Positions 22,082-64,000 of a stretch of DNA of 64,000 nucleotides are shown one piece after another. The notes under the pieces were generated by a model, which was given only the letters and a program-made list of their open reading frames with translations, had not been told where the DNA came from and made no database searches. How positions within the stretch are numbered: the stretch's first letter is position 1; each line of letters opens with the position of its first letter. The position numbers and the translations under genes are program-made. The DNA comes from Candidatus Gottesmanbacteria bacterium (GTDB lineage: Bacteria; Patescibacteriota; Microgenomatia; UBA10105; UBA927): assembly GCA_963714095.1 (NCBI GenBank), contig OY970230.1, positions 198,206 through 262,205 on the forward strand, given 5' to 3'.

Positions 22082-22792
22082 CTATTGTAGCATACGGATA
22101 CGGATGGCTCCTGCAAGCGACCGCAGGAGTTCTTTCACGTTTGCATTGGAAGCTCCATGTGTTCTGTCCCGGAAACTTATGGGGACTTCCGTTATTCGAA
22201 AACTGTTCTGCTTCAGTTTATATGCTATTTCCGACAGTACGATAAACCCGGTTTCATGAAGGTGCACGCGCACCAAAAATTCCGCTGCTTTTCGGGAGTA
22301 TAATCGGAAACCGTTGGTATAATCCGTTAAGTGCAACCCAAGCCATATGCTTAACAAGGCGTTAATTACTCTGCTTTGAATAAGTCGACGCCACGGCCAT
22401 TTTACAATATGGCTCTGTTTAAGATACCGCGAACCGATAACCAAATCTGCCCCGCGGCGTACGGCTAAAAACCGTCCGAACTCTGCCGGTGAATGCGCTA
22501 GATCTGCATCCATCTCAAAACAATATTGTATTTCCTTATGTTTGAGGGCTTCAGCTAATCCCCGAATGACGGCACTCCCTCTGCCCATTTTGTGCTCGCG
22601 GGAAATAAGAACCACGTTGGGAAAATCCCTTTGAAGCATTCCTGACAGTTGTATTACTTCGTTGGCAGGAGAGTCATCAACAACCACGATCAGAGCATCC
22701 GGGAGGTATTTTTCTATATCTTTTAATAAAATACTTAAATTTTTTTGTTCGTTATACGCCGGAATAATGACTGAAATACCTTGATTATTCAT
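22082..22792 (-). CDS. GT2 polyprenol-phosphate glycosyltransferase (DPM1/Ppm1/ArnC-like)
   Basis: ISVIIPAYNEQKNLSILL ... VVVDDSPANEV ... EMDADLAHSP pattern of dolichyl/polyprenyl-phosphate sugar synthases. 236 aa. Confidence 0.7.
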   Translation of the reverse strand: MNNQGISVIIPAYNEQKNLSILLKDIEKYLPDALIVVVDDSPANEVIQLSGMLQRDFPNVVLISREHKMGRGSAVIRGLAEALKHKEIQYCFEMDADLAHSPAEFGRFLAVRRGADLVIGSRYLKQSHIVKWPWRRLIQSRVINALLSIWLGLHLTDYTNGFRLYSRKAAEFLVRVHLHETGFIVLSEIAYKLKQNSFRITEVPISFRDRTHGASNANVKELLRSLAGAIRIRMLQ

Positions 22793-25096: not shown

Positions 25097-25120
25097 AATG
25101 AATTATTTTAAAACATACCC

Positions 25121-26980: not shown

Positions 26981-26983
26981 ATG

Positions 26984-49954: not shown

Positions 49955-50784
49955 ACTGCTTCCAAATCCTTTAATGCTTTATCAAACTCCTTTTCCGTCG
50001 GAGCTTTATACTGGGACGAAACTGTGCCTATATACCTGGCTACACCCCCAAGACCTTTTATCGTATGAGCGATAATTACCGATGGCTTTCCGTTTCGGAA
50101 TGGAAGAGTTCTAAACGTTTGGATAACTTTCTTAATATTATGCCCGTCTACCTCCGCGACTTCCCAATCAAAACTTTGCCATTTTTCTTTCAACGGTTCC
50201 AGATCTAACACATCTTTGGTGAATCCGAAGCCCTGCAGCTTATTATAATCGACGATAGCAATAAGGTTATCCAGCTTATGATATCCGGCAAACAATATAG
50301 CTTCCCATGTAGAACCTTCATCACATTCACCGTCGGACAGTACAGCGAATACTCGATAAGCCTTTTTATCCTGTTTCCCTACCCACGCCATTCCTGCAGC
50401 CATGGGTAACCCGTGGCCCAGAGAACCGGACGAAATTTCAATACCCGCGATACCTCGTACCGAATGTCCCGGCAATAATCCGCCGTCATGCTCATAGCCT
50501 TTCAACAGTTTTTTATCAAAGAAGCCACGTTCTGCAAGTACGGCATACAGAGCTTTAGCGTCATGCGCTTTGCTGAATACCAGCCTGTCCCGACGTGGAT
50601 TCACCGGATCGCCGGGATATACCTTCATTATCCGAAAATACAACGCTACCAAAATTTCCACACACGATAGCGCGCCGCCCGTATGTGCACTCTGAGCCAG
50701 ATAGCTCATCGTCAGAATATCCCGACGGATATCTCTTGCAATAGTTTCTAACGTTTTTCTTTTACTACGGGTAATTGTTCTCAT
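49951..50784 (-). CDS. transketolase, N-terminal (ThDP-binding) subunit
   Basis: GSLGHGLPMAAGMAW and VLSDGECDEGSTWEA ThDP-binding motifs. The track start is a TTG; trimmed to the ATG of MRTITRS. Confidence 0.8.
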   Translation of the reverse strand: MRTITRSKRKTLETIARDIRRDILTMSYLAQSAHTGGALSCVEILVALYFRIMKVYPGDPVNPRRDRLVFSKAHDAKALYAVLAERGFFDKKLLKGYEHDGGLLPGHSVRGIAGIEISSGSLGHGLPMAAGMAWVGKQDKKAYRVFAVLSDGECDEGSTWEAILFAGYHKLDNLIAIVDYNKLQGFGFTKDVLDLEPLKEKWQSFDWEVAEVDGHNIKKVIQTFRTLPFRNGKPSVIIAHTIKGLGGVARYIGTVSSQYKAPTEKEFDKALKDLEAV

Positions 50785-50796
50785 CTTCAGTATCAA

Positions 50797-50921
50797 TATA
50801 ATAATTATTTATCGTTTTACGCATGATCAACCTCACTATACTTTTTTAAACCCTGCATTCGTTTCAGAAACATTTTCCTCTTCGTTCTATCAGGGGATGC
50901 ACGCTTCTCTGCTTTTCTTCG
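50797..50921. promoter_or_regulatory. intergenic region upstream of the split-transketolase pair
   Basis: 125-nt non-coding gap between the aminotransferase stop and the transketolase start. Candidate internal promoter; no motif verified. Confidence 0.2.
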
Positions 50922-52034
50922 TTACCGATATCGAATAAGTTTTGTGAGCTTCTCACAAATGAATGCAACGTCCGATTCTGTTATATCGGCGGCAGACGGC
51001 AGGTTGAATCCATATTTCTCTACTTTTGCGGCTTCAGGATTAGGGAATCGGCGCTCGTACATGGGAAATCCGCTCATCCGGGGAAACGCGACCCTTCCAT
51101 GAATATTCCATCGTTCCAATTTACTTACCAAATCCTTATTGGATATTTTTTTTGAAGTGAGTAAAGCGGAGGGATATGCGTAATTACTGCGGCATCCGGG
51201 CCTTTCTTTAATGAGTTTTAATTCATGTACATCTTTCAGCCGTGAGTAATACCAGCCGAATATTCTCCGTTTTTTTGCAACGAGTTCTTCTATGCGCTCG
51301 ACCTGAGCAAGCGCCAGGGCTGCTGTCACATTTGCCATTTGATATTCATATCCCAGTGAATCACACCAAAAATTGAATTTCCTATTCGTTCTGCCCATGT
51401 TACTGAAAAGAATAGCTTTATCAAGGTATGCCTTATTATTTGTAATAAACATCCCGCCTTCACCAGAAACGGCGATTTTTGCCCCATGAAATGAATAGGC
51501 GCCGACGTCACCGAACGTGCCCACTTTCTTTCCTTTATATAAGGAGCCGAGCGAAGGAGCCGCATCTTCAATAACTTTAAGTTTATACTTTCCGGCAATT
51601 CGCATTATTTCATCCATTTCCGCCGGATGCCCGAAGGTATGAACGAGCATAATACCTTTCGTCTTTTTTGTAATTGCGCGTTCTACGGCTTTGGGATCAA
51701 TACACCATGTATCAGGATCAATATCAACAAATACAGGAGTTGCACCCGTATATGCGATCACGTGAGCGGTTGCGGCCCAACTGGTATCCACACATATTAC
51801 CTCGTCACCTTTTTGAAAACCGCAGACCAAACATGCAAGATGGAGTGAATGTGTTGCACAAAAACCGGCTAAAGAATACTTCGCACCGGTATAGTCACAC
51901 ATACGTTTTTCTAGTTTCTTTATATGCTTGTCAAATGTTGAGTACCACCCTGTCTTAACAGCATCGACAACATAATCAACTTCTTTTTGAGTCATCGATG
52001 GACCTGCAAAACTAATCCTTTTATATTTTTTCAT
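50922..52034 (-). CDS. DegT/DnrJ/EryC1/StrS-family PLP-dependent nucleotide-sugar aminotransferase
   Basis: Lys retained in AYSFHGAKIAVSGEGG. VIEDAAPSLGS motif. 370 aa. Confidence 0.8.
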   Translation of the reverse strand: MKKYKRISFAGPSMTQKEVDYVVDAVKTGWYSTFDKHIKKLEKRMCDYTGAKYSLAGFCATHSLHLACLVCGFQKGDEVICVDTSWAATAHVIAYTGATPVFVDIDPDTWCIDPKAVERAITKKTKGIMLVHTFGHPAEMDEIMRIAGKYKLKVIEDAAPSLGSLYKGKKVGTFGDVGAYSFHGAKIAVSGEGGMFITNNKAYLDKAILFSNMGRTNRKFNFWCDSLGYEYQMANVTAALALAQVERIEELVAKKRRIFGWYYSRLKDVHELKLIKERPGCRSNYAYPSALLTSKKISNKDLVSKLERWNIHGRVAFPRMSGFPMYERRFPNPEAAKVEKYGFNLPSAADITESDVAFICEKLTKLIRYR

Positions 52035-52719
52035 ACGGTAATTTCATAACTACACTATATCGTTTTATTGTTCCTTTATAACCTTTGGGTGCATTTTGCC
52101 ATTCAATTCTATCAGATTTAACAATCCTGATCATGGGCGTCCGTTTCACTTCAGTAAAATCAAGCTTTCGGTAAAGGCGAATGGCTCTTATATTATCAGA
52201 CGTTGTAGACAGCATATACGTTTTAATTCCAAATTCAACCCTGCCCCAACATATCATATGACGTATCGCATCTTCTATAATTCCGGGGTATAAATTCACA
52301 CCACGCACAATATTATCTATTTCGCAGATACGTTTTTGAAAATTAAAACGATACAAGCCGATATGACCGATGTACCGGTTTTTTACTTTTATCATAAATA
52401 AAATCCTGTCGGGTTCATTCACAACTTTATCGCGCAACCATTTTTCGGTTCCTTCCAAGGTAACCGGGAATATTGCAGGAAACCATTGCTCATGCTTTTT
52501 TCTCCATAACGCGAGTAGTTTAATAATTTTTTTATCAGTTCTCTGGTTGTCCGTAACGAGAACTAAATAATAACGAATTTTTCTAAAAATTATTTTAATT
52601 TGTAATTTTTTTCCGTGTTTAAGCAATGAAATTTTGTCTTTCACCAAACTGCTGATATCTCGCTCCGTTAATTTCATAATCAACCTAATGCTCTGTCTTT
52701 TATTCTTTCGATATATCAA
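52021..52719 (-). CDS. putative GNAT-type N-acetyltransferase (amino-sugar N-acylation)
   Basis: About 200 aa. IGHIGLYRF...CEIDNIVRG...AIRLYRKLDF resembles the GNAT acetyl-CoA-binding region. Lies directly downstream of the aminotransferase, as WecD does to WecE. The true start is probably internal (MKLTERD). Confidence 0.45.
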   Translation of the reverse strand: MIYRKNKRQSIRLIMKLTERDISSLVKDKISLLKHGKKLQIKIIFRKIRYYLVLVTDNQRTDKKIIKLLALWRKKHEQWFPAIFPVTLEGTEKWLRDKVVNEPDRILFMIKVKNRYIGHIGLYRFNFQKRICEIDNIVRGVNLYPGIIEDAIRHMICWGRVEFGIKTYMLSTTSDNIRAIRLYRKLDFTEVKRTPMIRIVKSDRIEWQNAPKGYKGTIKRYSVVMKLPYEKI

Positions 52720-52723
52720 CTAA

Positions 52724-53686
52724 TTATTTCAAGATAGAATTATACCAGCGGCGGATTAAAGGAAGTGTGTTTTTAATCGAATATGTAGGTCTCCATCCCA
52801 GATTGATAATCTTCCCTGCATTCAAATGCTGGTACGGAATTTCGTTCTTCGCCGAGTTTTCTATAACATACGGTATTTTTCTTTTTAGTATCCTTTCTGT
52901 TTGCCTGATGAGAGCTATCACTGAACACGAGTCGCTGGAGGATAAATTAAATGCCTCCCCATTAGTTTTATCTCTATGTTCAAGAAGGAACAAATAGCCG
53001 GATACTACATCTTCAACGTAAATATAGTCCCGGACATATGAACCGTCACTTCGAATAACCAATTTTTCTTTCGTGACAACTGCTTTCATTATTCCCGGAA
53101 TAATCCGTGAAAAATTCAGATCACCTTCTCCGTAAATATTTCCTGCCCGTGTAACGACGATAGGCAAATGGTATGTTTTTGCGTATGCGTGTGCGAGAAG
53201 ATCCGTTGCCGATTTAGAAACCTCATATGGATGGTCGCCTCTCAAAGGATCCGTCTCGATATAGGGTTTCCTGCTTTTTCCGTAGCTTTTATCAGACGAT
53301 GCAACAATGACTCCTTTCACATGAGTAAAAAGTCGTGCCGCATCGAGAATATAGGTGGTACCCATGATATTAGTTTCAATTGTTTCCACGGGATTTTCGT
53401 AGGCAGTAGGCACTATTGCCTGAGCGGCTAAGTGGAAAATATAGTCAATTTCATATTTTGACACGATATCAAAAACCCGATCTTTATCTTTAAGGTCACA
53501 TGAAACAAGAACGGTATTTTTTGATAACCGTTCGGTCATGAAATATGAACGGGGGTCTAATGATCGAAACGGCACAAATACCGTTGCATGCCTCCCTAGT
53601 AAGGCTTTCACAAGATGACTTCCAACAAACCCCGTTCCGCCTGTGACCAGAATGTTCTTTCCTGTTAATCTTTCCATATTTTCCAT
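52724..53686 (-). CDS. extended-SDR nucleotide-sugar dehydratase/reductase (CDP-glucose 4,6-dehydratase or CDP-dideoxyhexose synthase candidate)
   Basis: ILVTGGTGFVGSHL Rossmann motif. FHLAAQAIV, SSDKSYG and catalytic YEVSK. 320 aa. Adjacent to the cytidylyltransferase. Confidence 0.55.
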   Translation of the reverse strand: MENMERLTGKNILVTGGTGFVGSHLVKALLGRHATVFVPFRSLDPRSYFMTERLSKNTVLVSCDLKDKDRVFDIVSKYEIDYIFHLAAQAIVPTAYENPVETIETNIMGTTYILDAARLFTHVKGVIVASSDKSYGKSRKPYIETDPLRGDHPYEVSKSATDLLAHAYAKTYHLPIVVTRAGNIYGEGDLNFSRIIPGIMKAVVTKEKLVIRSDGSYVRDYIYVEDVVSGYLFLLEHRDKTNGEAFNLSSSDSCSVIALIRQTERILKRKIPYVIENSAKNEIPYQHLNAGKIINLGWRPTYSIKNTLPLIRRWYNSILK

Positions 53687-54441
53687 TCAGGATTCCGTTT
53701 CCATAATGTATTAAGACGTTCCAAATCCGCATATGTATCCATCGATTGCCAAAAACCTTTATGGACAAAAAGAGATAGCTCCCGGTCTTTAACAAGCCTT
53801 TTTAGTGCCTCATGTTCATATTCAGCCGGCCGCAGATAATTAAAAAACTTTTTATCAAATACCATAAATCCGCCGTTTACCCAATCCTGTAAAACAGGTT
53901 TTTCGACAAACTCCGTTACCCTGTGTTTAACATTTTGCCGGACCATTCCGTATTTACTTTTCGGATACACGCCAGTTATGGTACCGATTGTTTTTTGTTT
54001 TCTGTGAAACTGAACTAATTGCCGGATATTGATATTAGACACACCGTCCCCGTACGTAACCATAAAATCTTTATCAGTTTTCGGGATATAATCTTTTACA
54101 CGTATTATTCTTTCACCCGGAAGTGTCCCCTCTCCCGTATCTACAAAGGTAATTTTGAAATTATCGGCGGCAGATGGGTTTTTATGAAAAATCGCTGAGC
54201 CGGATTTTGTGGATAACGTAAAATTTTGTGAAAAATATTTTTGATTTAAAAAATACTCCTTAATCATATCCCCCTTATACCCGAGGGCAATGATAAAATC
54301 ATTAAACCCGTAGTACGCATACATTTTCATGATATGCCACAGGATTGGTTTATTGCCGACCAACACCATGGGTTTTGGTTTAAACTCTGTTTCCTCCTTT
54401 AATCTGTATCCTATACCGCCACATAAAATAATCGTCTTCAT
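53665..54441 (-). CDS. rfbF: glucose-1-phosphate cytidylyltransferase
   Basis: MKTIILCGGIGYRLKEETEFKPKPMVLVGNKPILWHIMKMYAYYGFNDFIIALGYKGDMIKEYF matches RfbF/DdhA closely. 258 aa, the expected length. Confidence 0.8.
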   Translation of the reverse strand: MKTIILCGGIGYRLKEETEFKPKPMVLVGNKPILWHIMKMYAYYGFNDFIIALGYKGDMIKEYFLNQKYFSQNFTLSTKSGSAIFHKNPSAADNFKITFVDTGEGTLPGERIIRVKDYIPKTDKDFMVTYGDGVSNINIRQLVQFHRKQKTIGTITGVYPKSKYGMVRQNVKHRVTEFVEKPVLQDWVNGGFMVFDKKFFNYLRPAEYEHEALKRLVKDRELSLFVHKGFWQSMDTYADLERLNTLWKRNPEWKIWKD

Positions 54442-54498
54442 ATTTAGTGGCCTATTATAACATTTATTGTCTTTTCGAAAAGTTTTACCGGGGCAGTT

Positions 54499-55608
54499 TT
54501 AGATGTGTATTGCTTTATTTAATAAATGGAGACTTTGTTTAACGGCATCTGTCCAACGCAGGTTGGCTACCCACTTTCTGGCGTTTATTTGATATTCTTT
54601 ATAGTGTAATTTGTCTCTATATAATTTCACCGCCTCCCGTGCCATTTCTCGGGGCGAGCAGCTTTCGATAACCATCCCTGTTTTTCCATGAATGACAACG
54701 TCCCTCAATCCGGGAACGTTATAAACAATTGCAGGTGTGCCTACGGACGCAGCCTCAAGAACAACAAGTCCCCACCCCTCTTTCACAGATGCGTGAAGAA
54801 GAAGGTGTGCCCGTGCCATACGGTTATATTTTTCTTTTTCAGAAACGTTTCCAAAAAAGATTACCCGTTCTTTTATACCGTATTCCGTTATCATTCTTTT
54901 CAATTCATCGATATACTCAGGCTCACCGCCTCCGATAATCCATAACACTGCATCCGTCTGTTCACGCACAATAAACGAAAACGCTTTAATAACCTCCTCG
55001 ATACCCTTCATACGGACGACACGGGATACAAACAGGTATGTAGGATGTATTTCTTTATTTTTCGAGGTTATATGAAACCGGCCGTGTACGGTAATCGGAC
55101 AGGGAATATTTACGCATTGTGATCGGGGAATACCGCGGGATACCAGTTCATCAATCGTCGACGGCGCATCCGTCCAAAAATAACAGTGACGATACAATCG
55201 GAAACACCATCGTTCCAGAAATTTTCCGATGACGTTTTTGGGAAACGAAAACATATAATCCCATATTTCTCCTGCTATCTCATGAATAAAAACGACGACC
55301 GGTTTCCCAGTGAAGAGCGTAGAAAAAAAAGGAAATCCGTGCACCTCGTCGACAATGATATCAAAAGCATTCCTGTGAGTAAGCAAGTAAAATGGGACGT
55401 ACAGATATATTGTGAGTGAGCCCGCCCGCCGGATAAAACGGACACTCTGAACCGTTTCTTCTTTTTTAGCACCGGAATATGCGGCAGTGAGCCATGTCAC
55501 ATCATTCCCCGCTGCCACCCACCCCTTTGCATGCTCAAAGGTCACTACTTCGGCCCCTCCGGATTTCGGATGACGAACATCACGCCAATTAAGTATTAAT
55601 ATGCGCAT
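54499..55608 (-). CDS. glycosyltransferase family 4
   Basis: MRILILNWRDVRHPKSGGAEV N-domain and EGWGLVVLEAASVGTPAIV C-domain. Confidence 0.8.
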   Translation of the reverse strand: MRILILNWRDVRHPKSGGAEVVTFEHAKGWVAAGNDVTWLTAAYSGAKKEETVQSVRFIRRAGSLTIYLYVPFYLLTHRNAFDIIVDEVHGFPFFSTLFTGKPVVVFIHEIAGEIWDYMFSFPKNVIGKFLERWCFRLYRHCYFWTDAPSTIDELVSRGIPRSQCVNIPCPITVHGRFHITSKNKEIHPTYLFVSRVVRMKGIEEVIKAFSFIVREQTDAVLWIIGGGEPEYIDELKRMITEYGIKERVIFFGNVSEKEKYNRMARAHLLLHASVKEGWGLVVLEAASVGTPAIVYNVPGLRDVVIHGKTGMVIESCSPREMAREAVKLYRDKLHYKEYQINARKWVANLRWTDAVKQSLHLLNKAIHI

Positions 55609-55616
55609 AATTCTTC

Positions 55617-56807
55617 CTATTTATGTCCGGCAGTAAATACCTTTATGATTGTTTGGATTTCTCCAGTCGTCAGTTCCGGATTATTGCCAAAATATAATCC
55701 TTGTTCATGTATGAGCTTCACGTTGACGCATTCGCGGAAATTACCCTTCACGTATTTGGTAAAAAACGGTTGTTCTGTCATATCGCCGCCGACAACCGGC
55801 CTGATTTCAATCCTGTTACCGCAGGCCTTTACTAACGAATCCCGGATTGCGGTTGATTTGCATATAACGGGCACGGCAAAATTTGAAATTGTATCCATGT
55901 GATCATATCGTATAGGATAGTAATCCGGCGACTGATAAATTCTTCCGGCAATTTTTTTAAAATTATTCTGCCGTTTCTTAATTATTTCAGGGAGAAATTT
56001 AATTTGAATTTGTCCTAGATACCCGGTAATTTCCGTCGGACGGAAATTATACCCTAAATCATAGAACGTATACCGCCCATAAAACGACGGGTTTGCAAGA
56101 AATTTTCTCCGGGCCGTCTGTTCCGGAACTGACAGATTTCTATCCCAACCGTGAGCCCGCACCATGATGAGCATACTCGCGAGATCACTGTTATCTGTAC
56201 AAACCGCACCTCCTTCGACTGTTGACATGTGGTGTCCAACGTAAAACGAAAATGTACCTGCCTCTCCGAAATTACCGAGTTTTTTGGCATGATAAACAGA
56301 TCCCAGAGATTCACAGTTGTCTTCTACGAACAGCATGCCGCGTTTATTGCAGAGATCCATAACTTTATCAATATCGTCACATAATCCGAGAAGGTTTGTA
56401 AGGAGAAGTGCTTTTAGTTTATACCTAGCTAATGTGTTTAACAGGGTTCTACTGGATACATTCAGGGTGTCTAGTTCCACGTCAACTGGTACCGGCTTCA
56501 GACCCAACTGAATAAGCGGCATAACGTTGGTAGACCATGTGACGGCGGAAAATCCGACCATGTCTCCTTTGTGAATTTTACCTAGATTAAGAAGGGCCTG
56601 AATAAGCGCTAAATTTGCGGAACTGCCGCTGTTGAGCAATACACAGTATTTTTTCCCCTGCCAGAAAGCAAATTGTTTCTCAAATGCTTCGCACTCCTTA
56701 CCGAAACTTAACTGTTTGGCGACCAATAAAAATTGGATCAGCTTCCGTTTTGTTTCGTTTTCTTTATAAAATGTCGATTTTATAAGTGTAATCATGTTAA
56801 TGAACAA
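55617..56807 (-). CDS. DegT-family His-variant sugar dehydratase (ColD/E1-like 3-dehydratase paralog)
   Basis: NSGSSANLALIQAL. Lys replaced by His in FSFYVGHHMSTVEGG. 396 aa and no C-terminal Cys cluster, resembling ColD-type GDP-4-keto-6-deoxymannose 3-dehydratase. Confidence 0.6.
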   Translation of the reverse strand: MFINMITLIKSTFYKENETKRKLIQFLLVAKQLSFGKECEAFEKQFAFWQGKKYCVLLNSGSSANLALIQALLNLGKIHKGDMVGFSAVTWSTNVMPLIQLGLKPVPVDVELDTLNVSSRTLLNTLARYKLKALLLTNLLGLCDDIDKVMDLCNKRGMLFVEDNCESLGSVYHAKKLGNFGEAGTFSFYVGHHMSTVEGGAVCTDNSDLASMLIMVRAHGWDRNLSVPEQTARRKFLANPSFYGRYTFYDLGYNFRPTEITGYLGQIQIKFLPEIIKKRQNNFKKIAGRIYQSPDYYPIRYDHMDTISNFAVPVICKSTAIRDSLVKACGNRIEIRPVVGGDMTEQPFFTKYVKGNFRECVNVKLIHEQGLYFGNNPELTTGEIQTIIKVFTAGHK

Positions 56808-56823: not shown

Positions 56824-57615
56824 TTACCCTATGTTTATGCGGAAATTCAATTCCGGATCAAACCGCCACTTTCGTTTGCTTGCATCATCATAATAATGAA
56901 GAATACGCAAACGATAAAATACTGCAAGAGTATCATTCAGCGTATTGTAAATGACCGGCAGAAATTTTCTCCAGGAAATGCTCGATTTTGCGGAAAATAA
57001 ATTAATTTCTATCGGCGCTTCATATATTTTTCTGTATCCTAAATAATATGCCACGGCAAGTATTTCAATATCGAAGGCAAATTGTTTTACGAGGAGTCTC
57101 GGAAGAACATCTTCTAGAAGCTTTCGCCTGTATATTTTCATCCCCACCTGCGTATCACGCACATTTAGTCCGAATAATATTCTCGTAATTTGTTGATATA
57201 CCCACGAAATAATTTTTCGTATATACGGATACTCTACTTTTGAATCCGGGTGGCGTTTACTTCCGATAATTGCATCCGCATGTTGAAACTCAAATTCTGC
57301 AAGCATGAGAGGAAGTGCTTCCGGCTTAAGATCTCCCCCCGCATCCATAAAACCGACAACATCTCCTTTTGCCTGAGAAAAACCGAATCGCACTGCATAT
57401 CCCTTTCCGTGATTGGTTTGATAACCTGTTATATGAACCCGAGAATCATGTATTGTTTTAATTTCTTCTGTGCTCTTATCCAATTTTCCGTCAATGACCG
57501 GAATAATCTCAAAATCTCTATGCATCTTTGATAATACGTTGATGATATCCGTGATATCACGTTTAATTGTTTTTTCCTGTTTATAGACCGGAATAATAAG
57601 ACTAAATTTTTTCAT
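56824..57615 (-). CDS. GT2 polyprenol-phosphate glycosyltransferase-like
   Basis: FSLIIPVYKQEKTIKRDI ... VIDGKLDKST ... GFMDAGGD pattern. Confidence 0.7.
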   Translation of the reverse strand: MKKFSLIIPVYKQEKTIKRDITDIINVLSKMHRDFEIIPVIDGKLDKSTEEIKTIHDSRVHITGYQTNHGKGYAVRFGFSQAKGDVVGFMDAGGDLKPEALPLMLAEFEFQHADAIIGSKRHPDSKVEYPYIRKIISWVYQQITRILFGLNVRDTQVGMKIYRRKLLEDVLPRLLVKQFAFDIEILAVAYYLGYRKIYEAPIEINLFSAKSSISWRKFLPVIYNTLNDTLAVFYRLRILHYYDDASKRKWRFDPELNFRINIG

Positions 57616-58858
57616 GGGATCCTAAAAGATAATATCCTCCGGCAATTATATCGTAAAGCATACATACGCTGATATTAATATAAATAACTCCGATTATACT
57701 CGAATGGAACATACTTATACCGATAATCTGCACGACCGCCGCTCCCATAGAAAATAACCAAATATGCAGTTTTCCAACGGCCAGACATGACATTGCGATG
57801 ATGTTGGCCACGGAAAACAGGCCCAGGAAAATCCCGAACAGCCCCAGCATTGCCCCTGCCCCGGCATATGCGTTTCCAAAAAGCATACCTACGATAAAGT
57901 TCGGGAACACAAAATAAAGAATGGTTATGGCAACCGATATTGCTCCAACTATTCCGACGGCAGAAAAAATAAGTTTTTTTGTTTTGGAGCCCGTGGCTAC
58001 CCGCTCAGAAGCAATCGGAAAAAGCACTATTGGAACAGCCGATGACGCGTAAAATATAATTTTTCCGAGAATCGCCAGCGCGGCATACAATCCTGCGTCA
58101 TGCGCACTGAAAAAATGTCTGACGAGTATGATATCCGTTGAGTAAAGTGATGTAATACCAAGCTGCATGAGAAGCGTTGGTACTGCAAAGGCAAACATAT
58201 CACGGCCTTTAAGTTTTGTTGGCCGCGCCTTTACCGACAACACGAATCGAAGCGGAATAAAATACAAAGCGTAAACAATAATACTCGCCAGTACCGCAGC
58301 CAACATCACTCCCGGGACTCCCCACGCGACCAAAGGAATACTCACCAAAAGTTTTACAAGGATGGCAAGAGCTCCCATAACGCCCACCCAAATAAATTTT
58401 TGATATCCGTTCAGCATGCCTGCTGTTGCAACTGTTACCAGTGAAACAACGAACAATGCATAGAGGAGCATAATCAATACTGAAGACGATAAATGAAGAA
58501 ATGATGTTATATACGGTCCTGTTATGAGAATAATCGGCACACCAACCACGGTGACTATCACAAATACTTTCGTTGCTTCAATGAAGAGCGATTTCGCCTG
58601 TCCGACTTCGCCATGTGCTTTAAAACCTGAAACAAATTTCACGATCACGGTTTGCGCAACCGTCAGCGGCACGGTAAATATATAGAGGAGCGATAAAAGA
58701 GAAGCTAATGCGCCATAGCCGGACGGACCAAGAAGTCTTCCCATTATCAGGTGATACAGGTACGAAAGCACATTGGCGCTCATGGTCCCGACAAAGACGA
58801 TAGCGCTGCTCCGTGCTAATTTATTTGAGGTAAACTTCTGTATAAATCCTTTATTCAT
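57602..58858 (-). CDS. Wzx-type oligosaccharide flippase (MOP superfamily)
   Basis: 418 aa, about 12 TM. N-term ARSSAIVFVGTMSANVLSYLYHLIMGRLLGPSGYG is typical of polysaccharide biosynthesis / Wzx proteins. Confidence 0.7.
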   Translation of the reverse strand: MNKGFIQKFTSNKLARSSAIVFVGTMSANVLSYLYHLIMGRLLGPSGYGALASLLSLLYIFTVPLTVAQTVIVKFVSGFKAHGEVGQAKSLFIEATKVFVIVTVVGVPIILITGPYITSFLHLSSSVLIMLLYALFVVSLVTVATAGMLNGYQKFIWVGVMGALAILVKLLVSIPLVAWGVPGVMLAAVLASIIVYALYFIPLRFVLSVKARPTKLKGRDMFAFAVPTLLMQLGITSLYSTDIILVRHFFSAHDAGLYAALAILGKIIFYASSAVPIVLFPIASERVATGSKTKKLIFSAVGIVGAISVAITILYFVFPNFIVGMLFGNAYAGAGAMLGLFGIFLGLFSVANIIAMSCLAVGKLHIWLFSMGAAVVQIIGISMFHSSIIGVIYINISVCMLYDIIAGGYYLLGSHEKI

Positions 58859-58872
58859 ACGTTATCGCGTAT

Positions 58873-60336
58873 CTAGCGCCATTCCTCTGTTTGCCTGTAT
58901 ATCTCACTGGAGTTGATACGTTGATACCCCGCCTTACTAAGCTCTGCACTTGAACTGCCGGACAAATCCAAAAAAGACGTGCCCCCTATACGAAATGATT
59001 GCCGATTTTCAACATTATTTGATGGTATCATATTCATTCCGATTTTAATTCCTGCCTCACCTGCCCGCCCTTCCGCCTCCAGGAACAGCTCTAGGGCTAA
59101 GGGTAAAGGATATTGAGCTTTATAATCATACAAAGCAATGTGTTTTCCTGGGTACCGTGAATATAACGATGTTTTCCAAATCTTAACTAATTGATCTACC
59201 ACATTAACTTTTCCTGTAATCTCTCTACAATCGGATGTAAAGCTCATTATAACAACGAATAGACAAACTAGAATTCCCAGGAATCGAGATTTCATAAATA
59301 TCTTATAAACTACCCAGGCGGAAAGGGTGAGGATAAATGGCTGAAGAAATACCGTATAGCTATCGAATAAAGGAACGTGTGAGTAGCGGAGCATACCTAA
59401 AATTCCGAAAAAAGAACAAATAATTACAATAAATTCAGCAACAATTTTTTTTCTGATGCATCCATATATAAATAACACCGAGACCAATATCATAAAGCCT
59501 GCTCCTATAAATTGATTGCCTCCGATTATTCTTCCCCATGTCGTTGGCCAATAAATTGTAAGGTATGTCAACCATCTTCTTCCTAAAGCTTCCAGTGGTA
59601 TGCGATACTGATCAAAACGGATGTAATAGATCATATTTCTCATATTAACGAACCCGTTCCGTATATCGAATAGTAATATCGGTAATGCACCAATAATACC
59701 GCCTGCGAGTAACAAAAGAACATTTGATACGTGAAATTTTTTCTCCGTGATTTGTGCGATTAAAACACAAATTCCGAGGATAAAAAGACCGCTACCCTGA
59801 AGATGAAAAGACGCACCCGTTGAAATCAAAAAACCTAATGCAAAGATATAACGGTTCTTACCTGATCGTAAAAAACGAACAACTGACCATAATGCGAATA
59901 TCGATATTATTGCCAAGGGAGATTCATTTGTCAGGCTGACTGATTGAGCGATTTGAGCGGTTGATACCGCGCTAAATAATCCCAATAAAATTCCAAACTT
60001 CGTATCAATTAACTCTGTACCAAACTGAATCATCAAGTAAACAAAAAAAACATATATCAAAGTCAAAACTATCCAGGGAGTTAAGACAGAAGCCGGATAT
60101 AACGCGGTTGCCGCCATAATAAACCAATACCACTGACCACCTGTTTGAAATGGTCCAGCTGACGAAAAAGGTCCGAGAAGCGGAATTTTATGTTCAGCGA
60201 GAGCCGCACGGGCAACAAGAGCGTCATGAGCTTGATCATACCCGAGCTCCCAACGATTACCATAATCGTAAAACCTCAAAATAAATGCCAAGAGAACAAT
60301 GCCTACTGTAACGATAATTATGCTATGTTTCTTCAT
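58873..60336 (-). CDS. GT-C fold membrane glycosyltransferase, GT39/ArnT-like
   Basis: First loop YDYGNRWELGYDQAHDALVARAAL. Polytopic. Adjacent to the DPM-like GT2 (ArnC/ArnT-like pairing). Confidence 0.6.
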   Translation of the reverse strand: MKKHSIIIVTVGIVLLAFILRFYDYGNRWELGYDQAHDALVARAALAEHKIPLLGPFSSAGPFQTGGQWYWFIMAATALYPASVLTPWIVLTLIYVFFVYLMIQFGTELIDTKFGILLGLFSAVSTAQIAQSVSLTNESPLAIISIFALWSVVRFLRSGKNRYIFALGFLISTGASFHLQGSGLFILGICVLIAQITEKKFHVSNVLLLLAGGIIGALPILLFDIRNGFVNMRNMIYYIRFDQYRIPLEALGRRWLTYLTIYWPTTWGRIIGGNQFIGAGFMILVSVLFIYGCIRKKIVAEFIVIICSFFGILGMLRYSHVPLFDSYTVFLQPFILTLSAWVVYKIFMKSRFLGILVCLFVVIMSFTSDCREITGKVNVVDQLVKIWKTSLYSRYPGKHIALYDYKAQYPLPLALELFLEAEGRAGEAGIKIGMNMIPSNNVENRQSFRIGGTSFLDLSGSSSAELSKAGYQRINSSEIYRQTEEWR

Positions 60337-60352
60337 GAAGACTACACAGTTA

Positions 60353-61039
60353 CTAATTTATAAACCGGTATTTAATGATCGTCCAGAAAGCAATAATGCC
60401 GTCACGCCATGTCAGTTTTTTCCCTTCATTAAACTTTCTTCCGTAATAGGAAATAGGGACTTCATATATTTGGTACCCGTTTTTAAGTACTTTGACTGTA
60501 AGTTCCGGTTCGACATCAAACCGCTTGGCACGAATCGTGATTCCGTTCAGCACCCCATGCCGGAATACTTTGTAACAGGTTTCCATATCCGTGATATCGG
60601 TATTGAATAATATGTTTGTTACAAATGTCACAAATTTATTCCCCTGCGCATAAATGAACATAGTTGAAAGATGTGGGCCCAAAAATCGCGAGCCGTACAC
60701 CACATCAACGTGCGGGTTGTCAAATGGAGATAAAAGCACGGGGTAATCGTTCGGACTATATTCCAAATCCGCATCCTGAACCAAGATCACGTCTCCCGTA
60801 GCTTTTTTAAATCCGATGCTTAAGGCGTTTCCCTTTCCTTCATTTTTTTCTTTGTAAATAACACGTACCTTCTTCTCCCAGGATTTCAAAACCGTTTTTG
60901 TGCGGTCTTTTGATCCGTCATCAACAACAATTATTTCCTTTGACCAGCCGGGTATGGCAACCTTTTCGATCCGCTGAAGGATTTCGTTAATCGTATGTTC
61001 TTCGTTATACACGGGTACGATAACGGAAAGTTTTTTCAC
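60353..61039 (-). CDS. GT2 polyprenol-phosphate glycosyltransferase (DPM1/ArnC-like)
   Basis: LSVIVPVYNEEHTINEIL ... VVDDGSKDRT ... QDADLEYSP. 228 aa, soluble. Confidence 0.8.
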   Translation of the reverse strand: MKKLSVIVPVYNEEHTINEILQRIEKVAIPGWSKEIIVVDDGSKDRTKTVLKSWEKKVRVIYKEKNEGKGNALSIGFKKATGDVILVQDADLEYSPNDYPVLLSPFDNPHVDVVYGSRFLGPHLSTMFIYAQGNKFVTFVTNILFNTDITDMETCYKVFRHGVLNGITIRAKRFDVEPELTVKVLKNGYQIYEVPISYYGRKFNEGKKLTWRDGIIAFWTIIKYRFIN

Positions 61040-62076
61040 ACCAATGCCCTTTCATACGCCGCGACAGTCTCCACTACGACTCTTTTCCAGGTAAACTGTT
61101 TTACCCATACCAATTGACGCATCGCCTGAGCTCGTCTGTCGACAGTAAGCATTTTCTTTATGCCCGCAAGGATCTCTTCCGGTTTTGGTGACACCTGTAA
61201 CGCCGGCCCTGCTATCTCTTTGAGGCTTGAGGTATTTGTGCAAACAACCGGGCAACCGCAGGCCATAGCTTCCAGTACCGGCAGACCGAATCCCTCATAG
61301 TAAGAGGGTTGTACATAGACCGAAGCCATGGAGTAAAAACCAGCAAGATCAGCCAGAGGCACGTTTCCCGGACAAATAACCACGTGTTCCAAATCATGCT
61401 CAAGAATAAACTGATTGATTTCCTGCGTTTCGGTGAGCGTCTCGCAAAATGCTCGGCCGACAAGAACTAATTTATATTCTAATAATTCACTGTGTTGACG
61501 AAGCGCTGCAAAAGCCTGCAATAGCCCGATCACATTTTTATTCCAATTGACGTCCCCGACAAAAAGAATATATTGTTTTGGTAAGGCATATTTCTTTCGT
61601 ATAGCAGCTACTAATTTTGAATCGGTAACCGGATGATACATCGCGTCACGAGCTAAATAAACAGTATCGACAATCTCTTTTTTAACGCCTACAATCCGTA
61701 CAATATCATTTTTTGAAGCGTTTGAGTCAGCAATAATTCGACTCGCGCCTCGAAGTGACAATTTCTGGACCTGCCATTTGATGTTGCCGCGGATGCCTGC
61801 CGGAAATTTGTACGGGAACACCAGAGGAATAAGGTCGTGAACCGTCACCAAAGTCGGCTCCGGTTTAACCAGAGGCAACGTCAGGAAAAACGGGTCAAAA
61901 TACGGATAATGCACGATATCTGCATCGTCCGGCACACGCTGATGACCTGTAAAATAAATATATGTGTGCTGTTTTCCGTATTTTTCCAACCCATCAATAA
62001 GATTCTTCGTATACACACCGATCCCCCGTGCGCGATGCGCGGATTCCAAAGGAGTTATGTCTATTGCTACCTTCAT
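61036..62076 (-). CDS. glycosyltransferase family 4
   Basis: MKVAIDITPLESAHRARGIGVYTKNL N-domain and EGFGLPVLEAMACGCPVVCTNTSSLKE C-domain. Start trimmed from the track ORF. ATGA overlap with the upstream gene. Confidence 0.75.
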   Translation of the reverse strand: MKVAIDITPLESAHRARGIGVYTKNLIDGLEKYGKQHTYIYFTGHQRVPDDADIVHYPYFDPFFLTLPLVKPEPTLVTVHDLIPLVFPYKFPAGIRGNIKWQVQKLSLRGASRIIADSNASKNDIVRIVGVKKEIVDTVYLARDAMYHPVTDSKLVAAIRKKYALPKQYILFVGDVNWNKNVIGLLQAFAALRQHSELLEYKLVLVGRAFCETLTETQEINQFILEHDLEHVVICPGNVPLADLAGFYSMASVYVQPSYYEGFGLPVLEAMACGCPVVCTNTSSLKEIAGPALQVSPKPEEILAGIKKMLTVDRRAQAMRQLVWVKQFTWKRVVVETVAAYERALV

Positions 62077-63641
62077 TGTAAAGAAGTATACCCTAAAATG
62101 ACCAGAACGGCCACGCTTATAACTGAAAGCGCATCCGCGACTTTTCGCACGGGCGTATCGGCAAACCACACGCGGATAGCGTGAGTTCCCTGCGGCACGG
62201 ATATATGTATGATGCCGTCACCTCTATAGTTGATGGGGACTTCTTTGCCGTCAACGGATGCTGTCCATCCGGGAAAATACAGCGTACTCACCGTTACAGT
62301 ACCGGCTTTGTCCATAAGGACGGTAAAATCCTTTTCCATGTACTCCCAACGAGTCTTCTGGGTCATCTGCCCGTTTTCAATTGCATACGGTGCTGCCGGC
62401 CGAGTAGTTTTCCATCCTGTCCAGATCGTCGAGAAACTGTTTCCCATAGACGAGGTTCCGTCGGTAAAATTCGGCCTTGCCAGGTAGTATGCCTCGTTTC
62501 GCGGTTCATAAAGAACCGGACGTGCGTAGGACGCGGCAAGCGCGACACTCAAAACAGCCAAGAATAACCCCCACCACGGACGTTTTAGTCTACTAGTCCA
62601 TACTGCCGCGCTGAAACCGGCAACCGGAATAACAAATGATAACAATCTCCAGGGGTATTGCACAAACGAGAGAGGCTTTATAAGCTCCCACAGAGGAGTA
62701 GAAATCGGCAACATAAAAACGATGCACAAACCGATGATACTCAAAAAATACGCAAATAATTTCGTGTAAGCGCTTTTTGGCTTACGCAACAAAACCCATA
62801 ATGCTCCTGCCATTGCCAACATCGGGGCTATTCCTATCTGTACGGACATGGCAGTACCAAAACTTCCGGTTCCTGAAAAACCTGTTCCCCAGGATGGAAT
62901 TAATAGTTCATACCAGTCAACAAAATATTGCCGGAAGTTCACGGTATTGAGACCCACAACATATTTGGATTCGATAAGTGCCGGCAGCCAGAAAAATGCG
63001 GAAAGTCCGATCCCACCAAGCATCCATAGGGCTCCTTTTTTATTCCGAATAAGAGCATACCCCAGTAAAAACGGCGTATAAAGCATCGCCATGATGTTGT
63101 GCGAAAGAATAAGGAGCCCATATACAATAGCGAACCAGAATAACTTTTTCTTTTCCAGCAGGTAAAAGCACAACAAAAGAAATGCAGTCGCCCAGACTTC
63201 ACCGATCGATCCGCGCACGTACATATCGACAAAAAGATACGGGACAAAGGCGGCAACGATTGATCCGACTGCGGACGGAAGGGCACCAAACAGGGTCAGT
63301 AGCCAGAGAAAAGCCGCCGCTGAGAGTGCTATATACCCCAAACCCATACTCATCTGAAATGCGTATACAGCATCATGAGTCAACATGCGCATAAATGAAC
63401 CGATATAGTCAGGCATGGGGTACTGATAATTAAAAATGGGTATCCCGTACCCGCTGTTCATATCCGGCGCCCATCGGGGAACTATGTATCCGGCTCCCAA
63501 CATCCGGGAAAATTCGACGATGCGGATAATATGATATTCACCGTCATGTGTCGGTATATACGCCTTACCAAACAGTGGACTGACCGCAAAAAAAATTGCC
63601 GCAATACATATGACGGCGGAGAGGACTACAGTTTTTTTCAT
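62073..63641 (-). CDS. polytopic membrane protein (GT-C-like candidate)
   Basis: 522 aa, about 13 TM. Early loop IPTHDGEYHIIRIVEF. Confidence 0.35.
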   Translation of the reverse strand: MKKTVVLSAVICIAAIFFAVSPLFGKAYIPTHDGEYHIIRIVEFSRMLGAGYIVPRWAPDMNSGYGIPIFNYQYPMPDYIGSFMRMLTHDAVYAFQMSMGLGYIALSAAAFLWLLTLFGALPSAVGSIVAAFVPYLFVDMYVRGSIGEVWATAFLLLCFYLLEKKKLFWFAIVYGLLILSHNIMAMLYTPFLLGYALIRNKKGALWMLGGIGLSAFFWLPALIESKYVVGLNTVNFRQYFVDWYELLIPSWGTGFSGTGSFGTAMSVQIGIAPMLAMAGALWVLLRKPKSAYTKLFAYFLSIIGLCIVFMLPISTPLWELIKPLSFVQYPWRLLSFVIPVAGFSAAVWTSRLKRPWWGLFLAVLSVALAASYARPVLYEPRNEAYYLARPNFTDGTSSMGNSFSTIWTGWKTTRPAAPYAIENGQMTQKTRWEYMEKDFTVLMDKAGTVTVSTLYFPGWTASVDGKEVPINYRGDGIIHISVPQGTHAIRVWFADTPVRKVADALSVISVAVLVILGYTSLQ

Positions 63642-64000
63642 ACCTTTCGTTTCGCAAGATACCGGAATCCGAGATATCCCGCATAGAAGACTAAAGGAAT
63701 GACGGTTAATCCGGAACGAAGAGCGGGCCCGGGTCCTTCATAATACCCCATCCACATATACGGAAGATTCCGTAGTTCCAAGGCAAATGAGAGTACTATC
63801 GTAAATCCCCACAAATACCGATGTGACGCAAACGGCAATAATGCTGCGGTTGCAACGAGCCATACTGCATACCATGGATACAATTCTTCGCGGATCGGGG
63901 CAACGATAAAAAAGACCGCTGCCAGAAAAATATATGCATATACGAGCATCCGTTCAAAAGAGACATTCCGGAAAAACAGAAGTGGCGCCAATACAACCGT
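63638..64000 (-). CDS. membrane protein, probably 5'-truncated by the window edge
   Basis: Three or four hydrophobic helices. The frame may be open to the window boundary. Confidence 0.3.
   Translation of the reverse strand, partial: TVVLAPLLFFRNVSFERMLVYAYIFLAAVFFIVAPIREELYPWYAVWLVATAALLPFASHRYLWGFTIVLSFALELRNLPYMWMGYYEGPGPALRSGLTVIPLVFYAGYLGFRYLAKRKV

Follow-up and report, generated by a model that had tools for sequence, protein, structure and literature searches.

A tightly packed glycosyltransferase and flippase gene module in a CPR bacterium, with a probable role in surface glycosylation from polyprenyl-monophosphate sugars

The window analyzed here is a 64-kb stretch of DNA, 98% coding, from a CPR bacterium whose genome measures 1.09 Mb. 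Inside a ~59-kb glycan supercluster, it carries a tightly packed set of genes encoding glycosyltransferases and a flippase, which we refer to as the module. The window as a whole also encodes at least eight GT2s and about nine GT4s, along with a phosphoglycosyl transferase, ManC, a Wzy_C protein, and three more PMT_2 proteins, and the genes surrounding the module point to polysaccharide assembly and rare sugars. The features relevant to this report are as follows.

63638..64000, minus strand: partial polytopic membrane-protein gene, the last 120 codons of a ~350-aa product; truncated at the window edge; the conserved module begins with it
62073..63641, minus strand: candidate GT-C-fold glycosyltransferase, 522 aa (Pfam PTPS_related), with a C-terminal beta-sandwich domain and a terminal TM helix
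61036..62076, minus strand: cytoplasmic GT4 (GT-B fold), 346 aa (Glycos_transf_1, E 2e-31)
60353..61039, minus strand: GT2-228, a TM-less GT-A of the polyprenol-phosphate sugar synthase type (DPM1/AglJ-like) by homology
58873..60336, minus strand: GT-C487, a membrane glycosyltransferase of predicted GT-C fold from a Patescibacteria-centred family, between the GT2-228 and flippase genes
57602..58858, minus strand: Wzx-type (MOP/PST superfamily) flippase by Pfam, 418 aa
56824..57615, minus strand: GT2-263, a second TM-less GT-A of the polyprenol-phosphate sugar synthase type by homology
55617..56807, minus strand: DegT/RfbH-like PLP enzyme, sugar 3-dehydrase or aminotransferase (PF01041, E 2e-58)
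54499..55608, minus strand: second cytoplasmic GT4 (Glycos_transf_1, E 1.6e-38), final gene of the conserved module
22814-31629: large exported proteins of uncharacterized function
22082..22792, minus strand: GT2-236, a third small TM-less GT2 of the same class (PF00535, E 8e-21), 35 kb from the module
12240-15233: 997-aa Wzy_C protein, in the same co-directional array as the module
4996-5634: PglC/WbaP-type phosphoglycosyl transferase (Bac_transf), in the same co-directional array as the module

A preliminary description of this locus listed four of these open reading frames, each of which is present with exactly the boundaries given there (56824-57615, 263 aa; 57602-58858, 418 aa; 58873-60336, 487 aa; 60353-61039, 228 aa). 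It omitted the 522-aa GT-C-fold gene, the window-edge gene (63638-64000), and both GT4 genes (61036-62076 and 54499-55608). Because every gene lies on the minus strand, GT2-228 is encoded upstream of the 487-aa protein, not downstream as had been described, and 16 nt separate the two genes; the 4-nt overlap (61036-61039) thought to couple them instead joins GT2-228 to the GT4 gene that precedes it. The gene for GT2-236, also described there as DPM-like, follows the gene for a 760-aa membrane protein rather than preceding it. Translational coupling extends to other junctions, including a 4-nt overlap between the window-edge and 522-aa genes, an ATGA start/stop overlap between the 522-aa and first GT4 genes, and a 14-nt overlap between the Wzx and GT2-263 genes. 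The true start of the first GT4 is the ATG at 62076, and the GTG at 62169 in the mechanically called frame is wrong; relatives of this protein are 347 aa long and align from residue 32 of that frame (57-79% identity).

Comparison with related genomes defines which of these genes belong together. In all three relatives inspected (L008, L009, and L010), the order membrane protein, 522-aa protein, GT4, GT2-228, Wzx, GT2-263, GT4 is the same, at 57-83% identity, and the 4-nt and 14-nt overlaps are kept. The linkage of GT2-228 with the 522-aa GT-C therefore holds at three of three loci; among the 120 best matches to each of these two families, 36 contig sizes are common to both lists, about 10 of them at ≤17 kb. 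The Wzx gene lies between the two small GT2 orthologues in each relative (60-69% identity), and the GT2-263 orthologues are 76-79% identical. The GT4 at 54499-55608 is 68-73% identical to the one that directly follows GT2-263 in the relatives, where no DegT/RfbH-like gene intervenes; relative to these three genomes, this enzyme gene is an insertion (RfbH NF011936, 216 bits against a cutoff of 423). The 487-aa GT-C gene is likewise an insertion, peculiar to the present genome. The conserved unit is thus GT-C(522), GT4, GT2-228, Wzx, GT2-263, GT4, and the division into an "ArnC/ArnT-like" and a "DPM/PMT-like" cassette proposed in the preliminary description does not survive. Outside CPR, the neighbors of GT2-228 homologues are mostly unrelated, with PMT_2 found in 7 of 71 neighboring or fused frames; in one Acidobacteriota frame, PMT_2 is fused with both a GT2-228 homologue and a methyltransferase.

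Both module GT2s match PF00535 (E 3e-24 and 2e-36), and for each the top solved structures are, in order, PfDPMS, ArnC, and GtrB (5ekp), all of them polyprenyl-phosphate glycosyltransferases. GT2-228 aligns with PfDPMS (5mlz) over residues 3-207 (E 3e-22), with its DAD at 89-91 placed on the DAD of PfDPMS, and scores 111 bits with NCBIfam AglJ over residues 4-224, far below the cutoff of 325. Its relatives form more than 120 clusters at 72-86% identity, each of 228 aa. GT2-263 aligns with PfDPMS over residues 3-206 (E 4e-11) and with ArnC over residues 2-171 (E 1.5e-10), and its NCBIfam matches include ArnC and PgfS (55 bits each) and PpgS (4-198 of 226 positions); a non-canonical MDAGGD replaces the DxD. 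GT2-236 has a DxD at position 95 and matches AglJ (60 bits), PpgS (54 bits, 4-195 of 226 positions), and ArnC (53 bits). Both module GT2s are therefore homologous to DPM1/Ppm1-type enzymes across the catalytic domain, and the DAD motif is present in GT2-228 only.

The best NCBIfam models for the GT2s (AglJ, Dol-P hexose transferase, ArnC, PgfS, and PpgS) cover them at near full length, and the likeness to PfDPMS, ArnC, GtrB, AglJ, and PpgS extends over the whole catalytic domain. Likeness to processive synthases is confined to the N-terminal nucleotide-binding half: the PgaC and NodC models match only the first ~115 residues, and a motif search found no QxxRW. All scores with named equivalogs lie far under their cutoffs, and we rejected an ArnC identity for the GT2s, which reach 55-65 bits against 529 for NF007986 and lack C-terminal TM helices; no hydrophobic or TM segment was found in GT2-228, GT2-263, or GT2-236. 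By homology, GT2-228 and GT2-263 would belong to the polyprenyl-monophosphate sugar synthase class, with polyprenyl phosphate as the probable acceptor lipid.

The membrane proteins that could use such lipids are more divergent. The GT-C candidates are polytopic, and the first loop outside the membrane carries an acidic residue that is conserved; neither has a sequence-level link to any characterized enzyme. The 522-aa protein passes PTPS_related (PF10131, 30.3 bits against 26.4) and has an invariant acidic pair, D33/E35, in this loop. It falls short of YfhO membership (PF09586, 24.8 bits against 28.5, residues 434-492 only). For the 487-aa protein, neither sequence nor profile searches matched any solved structure, and only its predicted fold identifies it as a GT-C. 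Its loop-1 motif, YDQAHD, contains an invariant D34-Q35 and no DE pair. Its PMT_2 match (20.5 bits) is below the Pfam threshold of 26.1, and no MIR or other domain was matched by Pfam in the outside regions of either GT-C. We therefore set aside GT39/PMT membership for the 487-aa protein, and GT83/ArnT membership as well, there being no sequence match to ArnT; of the families first assigned to the four frames, the GT2 and flippase calls held and the GT39/ArnT label did not. At four of six loci, homologues of the 487-aa protein have an AglJ-like GT2 of ~237 aa encoded immediately upstream, 43-48% identical to GT2-228.

The window-edge gene may encode a further, small GT-C. Its frame is open to base 64000, and the 120 encoded residues share 73-78% identity with the C-terminal ends of 264-352-aa proteins whose genes immediately precede that of the 522-aa homologue in the three relatives. 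Precomputed Pfam annotation places PF26314 (MptA_B_family) on these orthologues, but our own hmmscan gave no match for these sequences with E values up to 0.01, and the family had no PDB sequence match. The homologues have ~8 hydrophobic segments and a YDLFNY motif in the first loop.

As a flippase the module offers a single candidate, the 418-aa protein, which has multiple hydrophobic segments along its length and belongs to the Wzx/PST family of the MOP superfamily by its Pfam scores (Polysacc_synt_3, 37.2 bits against a gathering score of 23; Polysacc_synt, 28.8 against 28.2). No GtrA-type gene is present in the window, whose coding density leaves no room for one. Wzx-type proteins usually flip polyprenyl-diphosphate oligosaccharides, and since the window also encodes a phosphoglycosyl transferase and a Wzy-like protein, this flippase may serve a diphosphate pathway instead.

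We consider it probable, on balance, that the module makes lipid-linked monosaccharides inside the cell, flips them across the membrane, and joins them to a molecule on the outer surface. GT2-228 and GT2-263, as soluble or peripheral GT-A enzymes, would each place one nucleotide-sugar-derived sugar on polyprenyl phosphate at the cytoplasmic face, yielding two different polyprenyl-monophosphate sugars; the ManC encoded in the window could supply GDP-mannose. The Wzx-type transporter would take both lipids to the outer face and possibly also move a lipid-linked primer built by the two GT4s. Outside, the 522-aa PTPS_related protein, probably the ~350-aa upstream protein, and here also the 487-aa GT-C would hand these sugars on to an acceptor beyond the membrane, for which the likeliest candidate is a cell-wall glycopolymer or lipoglycan that the surrounding supercluster produces. 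In its central idea, that cytoplasmic GT2s make polyprenyl-monophosphate sugars for a flippase and outside GT-Cs, the preliminary description was supported by every test that could be run, through the class-level homology of the GT2s, the predicted fold of the 487-aa protein with its invariant Asp, and linkage conserved across genomes; what fell away were its cassettes and, at sequence level, membership in GT39, GT83, and ArnC. Protein O-mannosylation and lipid A modification, both named there, have no specific pointer here.

An unlikely alternative is that the locus is purely a classical Wzx/Wzy system, in which the small GT2s and GT4s are Leloir enzymes elongating a polyprenyl-diphosphate repeat unit begun by Bac_transf, Wzx flips this unit, and the GT-Cs act as oligosaccharyltransferases, ligases, or polymerases (PglB/AglB-like). 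The PglC/WbaP-type enzyme and the 997-aa Wzy_C protein in the same array would fit, as would a flippase of Wzx rather than GtrA type and the recurrent fusion in the 487-aa family (P0082) to a GT2 of MftF/EpsD-like Leloir type, not synthase type. However, the small GT2s match polyprenyl-phosphate glycosyltransferases best, and do so across their entire catalytic domain, and in the three relatives the GT2-flippase-GT2 arrangement has no phosphoglycosyl transferase within 7 kb. Moreover, the C-terminal outside domain of the 487-aa protein is only ~90 residues long, whereas the oligosaccharyltransferases matched by its fold comprise 700-790 residues; judged by these lengths, it would lack the large periplasmic domain that bears the WWDYG motif in oligosaccharyltransferases.

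We give equally little weight to protein O-glycosylation, which would use the same Pol-P-sugar machinery to modify Ser/Thr-rich regions of secreted or membrane proteins, as in actinobacterial Ppm1/Pmt and streptococcal PgfS/PgfM1/PgfM2. The weak NCBIfam match of the 522-aa protein to the PgfM1 C-terminus, the presence of PgfS among the top models for GT2-263, and the large exported proteins encoded in the window favor it. Against it stand the lack of recognizable outside domains noted above (MIR repeats belong to eukaryotic PMTs) and an identity to PMTs of only 8-13%, and tandem GT-C paralogues in relatives (up to five different ones in L003), together with polysaccharide and rare-sugar neighbors, fit glycan building better than modification of a single protein. 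It is very improbable that the GT-C-fold proteins are non-catalytic or otherwise active, as a PIG-U-like scaffold or in polymer export or anchoring, and adjoin the GT2s merely through a shared envelope-biogenesis operon: their lack of links to characterized enzymes would allow this, but invariant acidic and basic residues occupy the GT-C catalytic and phosphate-binding positions.

Glycosylation from polyprenyl-monophosphate sugars is already known, and the module is not a new kind of system. It differs from ArnC/ArnT of lipid A aminoarabinosylation in the low ArnC scores and TM-less form of its GT2s, in having no sequence match to ArnT, and in the absence of the ArnA/B/D/E/F set; to our knowledge, a lipid A pathway is not expected in this lineage. 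The Gtr (GtrA/GtrB/Gtr*) and CsbB/GtcA/YfhO systems share its proposed logic, in which a GT2 synthesizes a polyprenyl-phosphate sugar, a flippase moves it across the membrane, and a GT-C uses it. GtrB is among the top structure matches of both module GT2s, and the 522-aa protein has the weak C-terminal match to YfhO, of 60 residues and below threshold. GtrB and CsbB, however, carry C-terminal TM helices that the window GT2s lack, and the module flippase is Wzx-type, with no GtrA-sized gene fitting in the window. Actinobacterial Ppm1 with Pmt, and with MptA/MptB/PimE of lipomannan/LAM, similarly has a DPM1-type synthase feeding several GT-Cs that build an outside glycan, with cytoplasmic GT4s making the primer, and in relatives the first module gene has the precomputed MptA_B_family match, which our scan did not reproduce. 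The module differs in having a dedicated MOP flippase, and no phosphatidylinositol-related genes were seen.

In the GT136 system of the Citrobacter youngae O-antigen (PPPRS/MATE flippase/GT136), a MOP-superfamily flippase serves a lipid-linked monosaccharide, so that a MOP transporter rather than GtrA can supply a GT-C donor, and the GT-C acts after polymerization (PMC11127046). Its donor synthase, unlike those of the module, is of phosphoribosyltransferase type, not a GT2, and its flippase is of the MATE rather than the Wzx/PST family. GacI/GacJ/GacK/GacL of Streptococcus pyogenes add GlcNAc side chains to the group A carbohydrate, with GacI/GacK/GacL laid out as a TM-less GT-A, a Wzx-type flippase, and a GT-C (PMC8035078; 10.1101/180810). 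The module has two synthase-type GT2s around its flippase and two or three GT-Cs where Gac has one, its GT-Cs have no detectable sequence relation to characterized ones, and its host is a CPR bacterium with only 1.09 Mb of genome. No small membrane partner resembling GacJ or DPM3 can be seen in the module, and the window has no space for one. As judged from the genes alone, the Gac system and the module share an anchorless GT-A that would make the Und-P-sugar, followed by a Wzx-type flippase and a GT-C, all encoded within a cell-wall polysaccharide cluster.

All four open reading frames (ORFs) named in the preliminary description are present with exactly the boundaries it gave. They all lie on the minus strand, so the gene for the 228-aa GT2 (GT2-228) is upstream of the gene for the 487-aa membrane protein (GT-C487), not downstream as had been proposed. 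The 4-nt coupling previously ascribed to these two genes was also misplaced, as at 61036-61039 it is the preceding GT4 gene that overlaps GT2-228. In order of transcription, the region comprises:

63638-64000+, minus strand: membrane protein truncated at the window edge, first in transcription order
62073-63641, minus strand: 522-aa membrane protein
61036-62076, minus strand: GT4
60353-61039, minus strand: GT2, 228 aa
58873-60336, minus strand: 487-aa membrane protein
57602-58858, minus strand: Wzx-like protein
56824-57615, minus strand: GT2, 263 aa (GT2-263)
55617-56807, minus strand: DegT/RfbH-like enzyme
54499-55608, minus strand: GT4; CDP-sugar genes and others for sugar modification lie downstream

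This region is a single long co-directional array. ATGA overlaps can be read in the window sequence at 62073-62076 and 63638-63641, the Wzx and GT2-263 genes overlap by 14 nt, and gaps of 14-16 nt flank the 487-aa gene. Scanning 49-64 kb of the window for promoters and terminators returned chance-level results. The window is 98% coding and has no room for a small gene of the GtrA or GacJ type.

Comparison with three related loci (L008, L009 and L010) delimits a conserved module of seven genes. Their products are, in order, a small GT-C-like protein, the 522-aa GT-C, a GT4, a MOP flippase flanked by two putative Pol-P-sugar synthases, and another GT4. In these relatives the order is ~350-aa membrane protein, PTPS_related protein (511-532 aa), GT4 (328-347 aa), GT2 (228 aa), Wzx (419-420 aa), GT2 (263 aa) and GT4 (366-372 aa), with the same gene overlaps as in the window. 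Identities to the window proteins, in that order, are 73-78%, 58-72%, 57-79%, 74-83%, 60-69%, 76-79% and 68-73%. Relative to this order, two genes are inserted in the window: that of the 487-aa GT-C, which separates GT2-228 from Wzx, and an RfbH-like one, which separates GT2-263 from the second GT4. The junctions flanking the 487-aa gene recur in an independent 3.4-kb assembly. GT2-228 is represented by more than 120 clusters that are 72-86% identical and all 228 aa long, one of them named Gottesmanbacteria, and is far better conserved than GT-C487, whose homologues are 41-52% identical. Among the best 120 matches of each family, GT2-228 and the 522-aa protein have 36 contig sizes in common, about ten of them ≤17 kb; the GT-C487 and GT2-228 lists share none except that of the window's own contig (1,088,247 bp).

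Both GT2s of the module match PF00535 strongly. When all PDB chains were searched, their best matches were, in rank order, the Pyrococcus Dol-P-mannose synthase (PfDPMS, 5mlz; E 3e-22 for GT2-228 and 4e-11 for GT2-263), three ArnC structures and GtrB. The PfDPMS alignments span the entire catalytic domain (residues 3-207 and 3-206, respectively). The top NCBIfam models (AglJ, Dol-P hexose transferase, ArnC, PgfS and PpgS) are covered at near full length, with every score far under the equivalog cutoff, and the PgaC and NodC models align to the first ~115 residues only. The QxxRW motif is absent from all three small GT2s, including the one at 22082-22792, and none has a transmembrane helix; a hydrophobic-moment search for C-terminal interface helices gave no informative signal. 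Because the best matches are synthases aligned over the full domain and QxxRW is lacking, the GT2s do not group with processive synthases, as judged by the ranking of HMM and PDB matches rather than a formal tree. This agrees with the polyprenol-phosphate sugar synthase class first proposed for them. GT2-263 and its orthologues (76-79% identical) carry MDAGGD where PfDPMS, GT2-228 and related synthases have the metal-binding DAD/DxD.

Sequence and profile searches against all PDB chains yielded no solved-structure match for either the 487-aa or the 522-aa family, and fold comparison was the only informative route for both. The AlphaFold model of the 487-aa protein, built from a 55-sequence alignment, has a pLDDT of 91; in that alignment D34 and Q35 of the first outside loop are invariant. 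The 522-aa protein passes Pfam PTPS_related (30.3 bits vs 26.4), its YfhO-like C-terminus is sub-threshold, and T31, H32, D33, E35 and Y36 of its first loop are invariant. Based on predicted folds, both proteins are GT-Cs. They form separate families, since hhalign gives a probability of only 0.9% for a relationship between them, and at sequence level neither belongs to GT39, GT83 or YfhO. Thus, of the earlier "GT39/ArnT-like" label for the 487-aa protein, the GT-C part is upheld by the predicted fold; membership in GT39 or GT83 is not, given a sub-threshold PMT_2 score (20.5 bits vs a cutoff of 26.1) and the lack of a PDB match. The first module gene carries the precomputed Pfam label MptA_B_family (PF26314) in the relatives (L008:3605-4399, L009:3311-4369, L010:2060-3106). 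Our own hmmscan of these proteins against Pfam found no family and did not reproduce the label; the match may be marginal, or the model may be absent from the Pfam set scanned.

The 487-aa family is usually found in a different setting. Among 1.84 billion, 335 representatives match this family at E ≤1e-30 and 1148 at E ≤1e-10; its homologues are from Patescibacteria, and the names given are Levybacteria or Roizmanbacteria. Loci L002, L003, L004 and L007 share the order GT4, YfhO (~750 aa), GT2 (~305 aa), AglJ-like GT2 (~237 aa; 43-48% identical to GT2-228), GT-C487 homologue and further PMT_2 proteins; L006 has a homologue without a small GT2. In the Levybacteria-type loci L003:7515-13518 and L007:9503-17488, four to five different PMT_2/PMT-type GT-C genes stand in tandem downstream of the homologue, and the L007 cluster has a gene for a PBP_dimer penicillin-binding protein at its upstream end. 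These tandem GT-Cs and the PBP_dimer gene point to stepwise extracytoplasmic glycan assembly tied to the cell wall. One family member (P0082, L005:6001-8295) is fused N-terminally to a GT2 of the ~305-aa type, and two further representatives, P0430 and P0441, are of fusion length. The fusion is recurrent, with a GT2 part of ~275 aa that is of the MftF/EpsD-like Leloir type, and a P0082-type polypeptide would comprise one cytoplasmic and one extracytoplasmic glycosyltransferase domain. We considered P0082 as Rosetta-stone support for pairing of a synthase with a GT-C and rejected it, because BLAST and NCBIfam identify the fused GT2 as a Leloir enzyme that is not synthase-like.

A contig scan with GT2-228 listed matches exclusively from phyla other than Patescibacteria (CPR), including Chloroflexota, Acidobacteriota and Melainabacteria (47-57% identical). 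Among the matches listed, no other module gene lies nearby, and the neighbors are heterogeneous, with PMT_2 in 7 of 71 neighboring or fused ORFs and methyltransferase in 7. In Acidobacteriota/Thermoanaerobaculia, homologues occur as GT2-methyltransferase fusions (L028:8366-11440; L016, L052, L057, L065, L086). A 1054-aa acidobacterial ORF (L034:8183-11344) combines PMT_2, GT2 and methyltransferase, and is a direct fusion of the GT2-228 family with a GT-C. Within the window, a SAM methyltransferase gene (234 aa) directly precedes that of a 667-aa PMT_2 protein (44994-47680); L009:12183-14687 has the same pair, a 52% identical methyltransferase followed by a 665-aa protein. The recurrence of this pair, together with the acidobacterial GT2-methyltransferase fusions, hints at possible methylation of lipid-linked sugars.

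The module sits in a larger glycan-assembly supercluster that is co-directional and occupies nearly all of 4996-64000, ~59 kb of the 1.09-Mb genome (~5%); housekeeping genes (HisRS-like, RecO) are confined to 1085-2944. It encodes a Bac_transf phosphoglycosyl transferase, ManC, DUF4012, a 997-aa Wzy_C protein, at least eight GT2s, ~9 GT4s and at least six GT-C-like proteins, along with CDP-sugar genes, acyl-, acetyl- and methyltransferases, and epimerases/dehydratases. The window has three further PMT_2 proteins. Interspersed with the glycosyltransferases are six large proteins, polytopic or exported, of 537, 760, 619, 580, 986 and 557 aa (18327-19940, 22814-31629, 40021-41694). They match no Pfam family, save for a weak DUF5667 match in the 986-aa protein; they may be further GT-C or polymerase-like proteins. 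The 537-aa protein has a 52%-identical homologue at L006:4638-6176, near the closest GT-C487 relative. One GT4 is apparently split into N-domain (7786-8271, 173 aa) and C-domain (8261-8782, 161 aa) ORFs with an 11-nt overlap, and may represent a frameshift, a pseudogene or a true two-piece enzyme; a lone GT4 N-domain ORF (17765-18325, 186 aa) precedes a full GT4 at 16635-17768. Interleaved with the module at 49028-56807 is a rare-sugar pathway, with genes for an NTP_transferase, a 4,6-dehydratase, an RfbH-like PLP enzyme, two further DegT aminotransferases, a GNAT protein and a split transketolase (N subunit 49951-50796, C subunit 49028-49954), suggesting a CDP-linked dideoxy-, amino- or branched-sugar product.

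We propose that the two GT-A enzymes, which lack transmembrane helices, would each load a different sugar onto polyprenyl phosphate. The lipid-linked sugars, and perhaps also a GT4-made primer, would be carried across the membrane by the MOP flippase, whose gene lies between those of the two enzymes, and the GT-C proteins would pass the sugars to an acceptor outside. We infer that this acceptor is a glycopolymer or lipoglycan rather than a single modified protein, on account of the supercluster context and because relatives carry GT-C paralogues in tandem. PMT- or Pgf-like O-glycosylation of proteins appears quite unlikely. We assign a similarly low probability to a pure Wzx/Wzy pathway with GT-Cs acting on diphosphate-linked donors, and find it highly improbable that the GT-C-like proteins are non-catalytic.

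CPR bacteria, whose genomes are tiny, are generally regarded as living attached to other cells, and next to nothing is known of their envelope chemistry; our literature search turned up no account of GT-C or three-component systems in Patescibacteria. We speculate, with considerable doubt, that the module, conserved at 57-83% identity across Microgenomates, is the core pathway for an undescribed CPR lipoglycan or secondary wall polymer. GT4s would prime this polymer in the cytoplasm; after flipping, it would grow mostly on the outer side of the membrane, drawing on two polyprenyl-phosphate sugars, by analogy with mycobacterial lipomannan/LAM. Lineage-specific insertion of GT-C genes, the 487-aa gene among them, would vary the host-contacting surface. 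The compact, strongly conserved module gives expression studies and assays of lipid intermediates a well-defined target, and the analysis adds two uncharacterized, structurally supported families of predicted GT-C fold that sequence does not connect with any solved structure.

The module does not reveal a new mechanism, as its layout is that of Wzx-type multi-component transmembrane glycosylation already known in streptococci. A MOP-family flippase serving a lipid-linked monosaccharide has published precedent (PMC11127046), and in the streptococcal variant GacI is the cytoplasmic GT-A, GacK the Wzx-type flippase and GacL the GT-C (PMC8035078; 10.1101/180810). GacI/GacK/GacL is the closest published match to the layout of the module.
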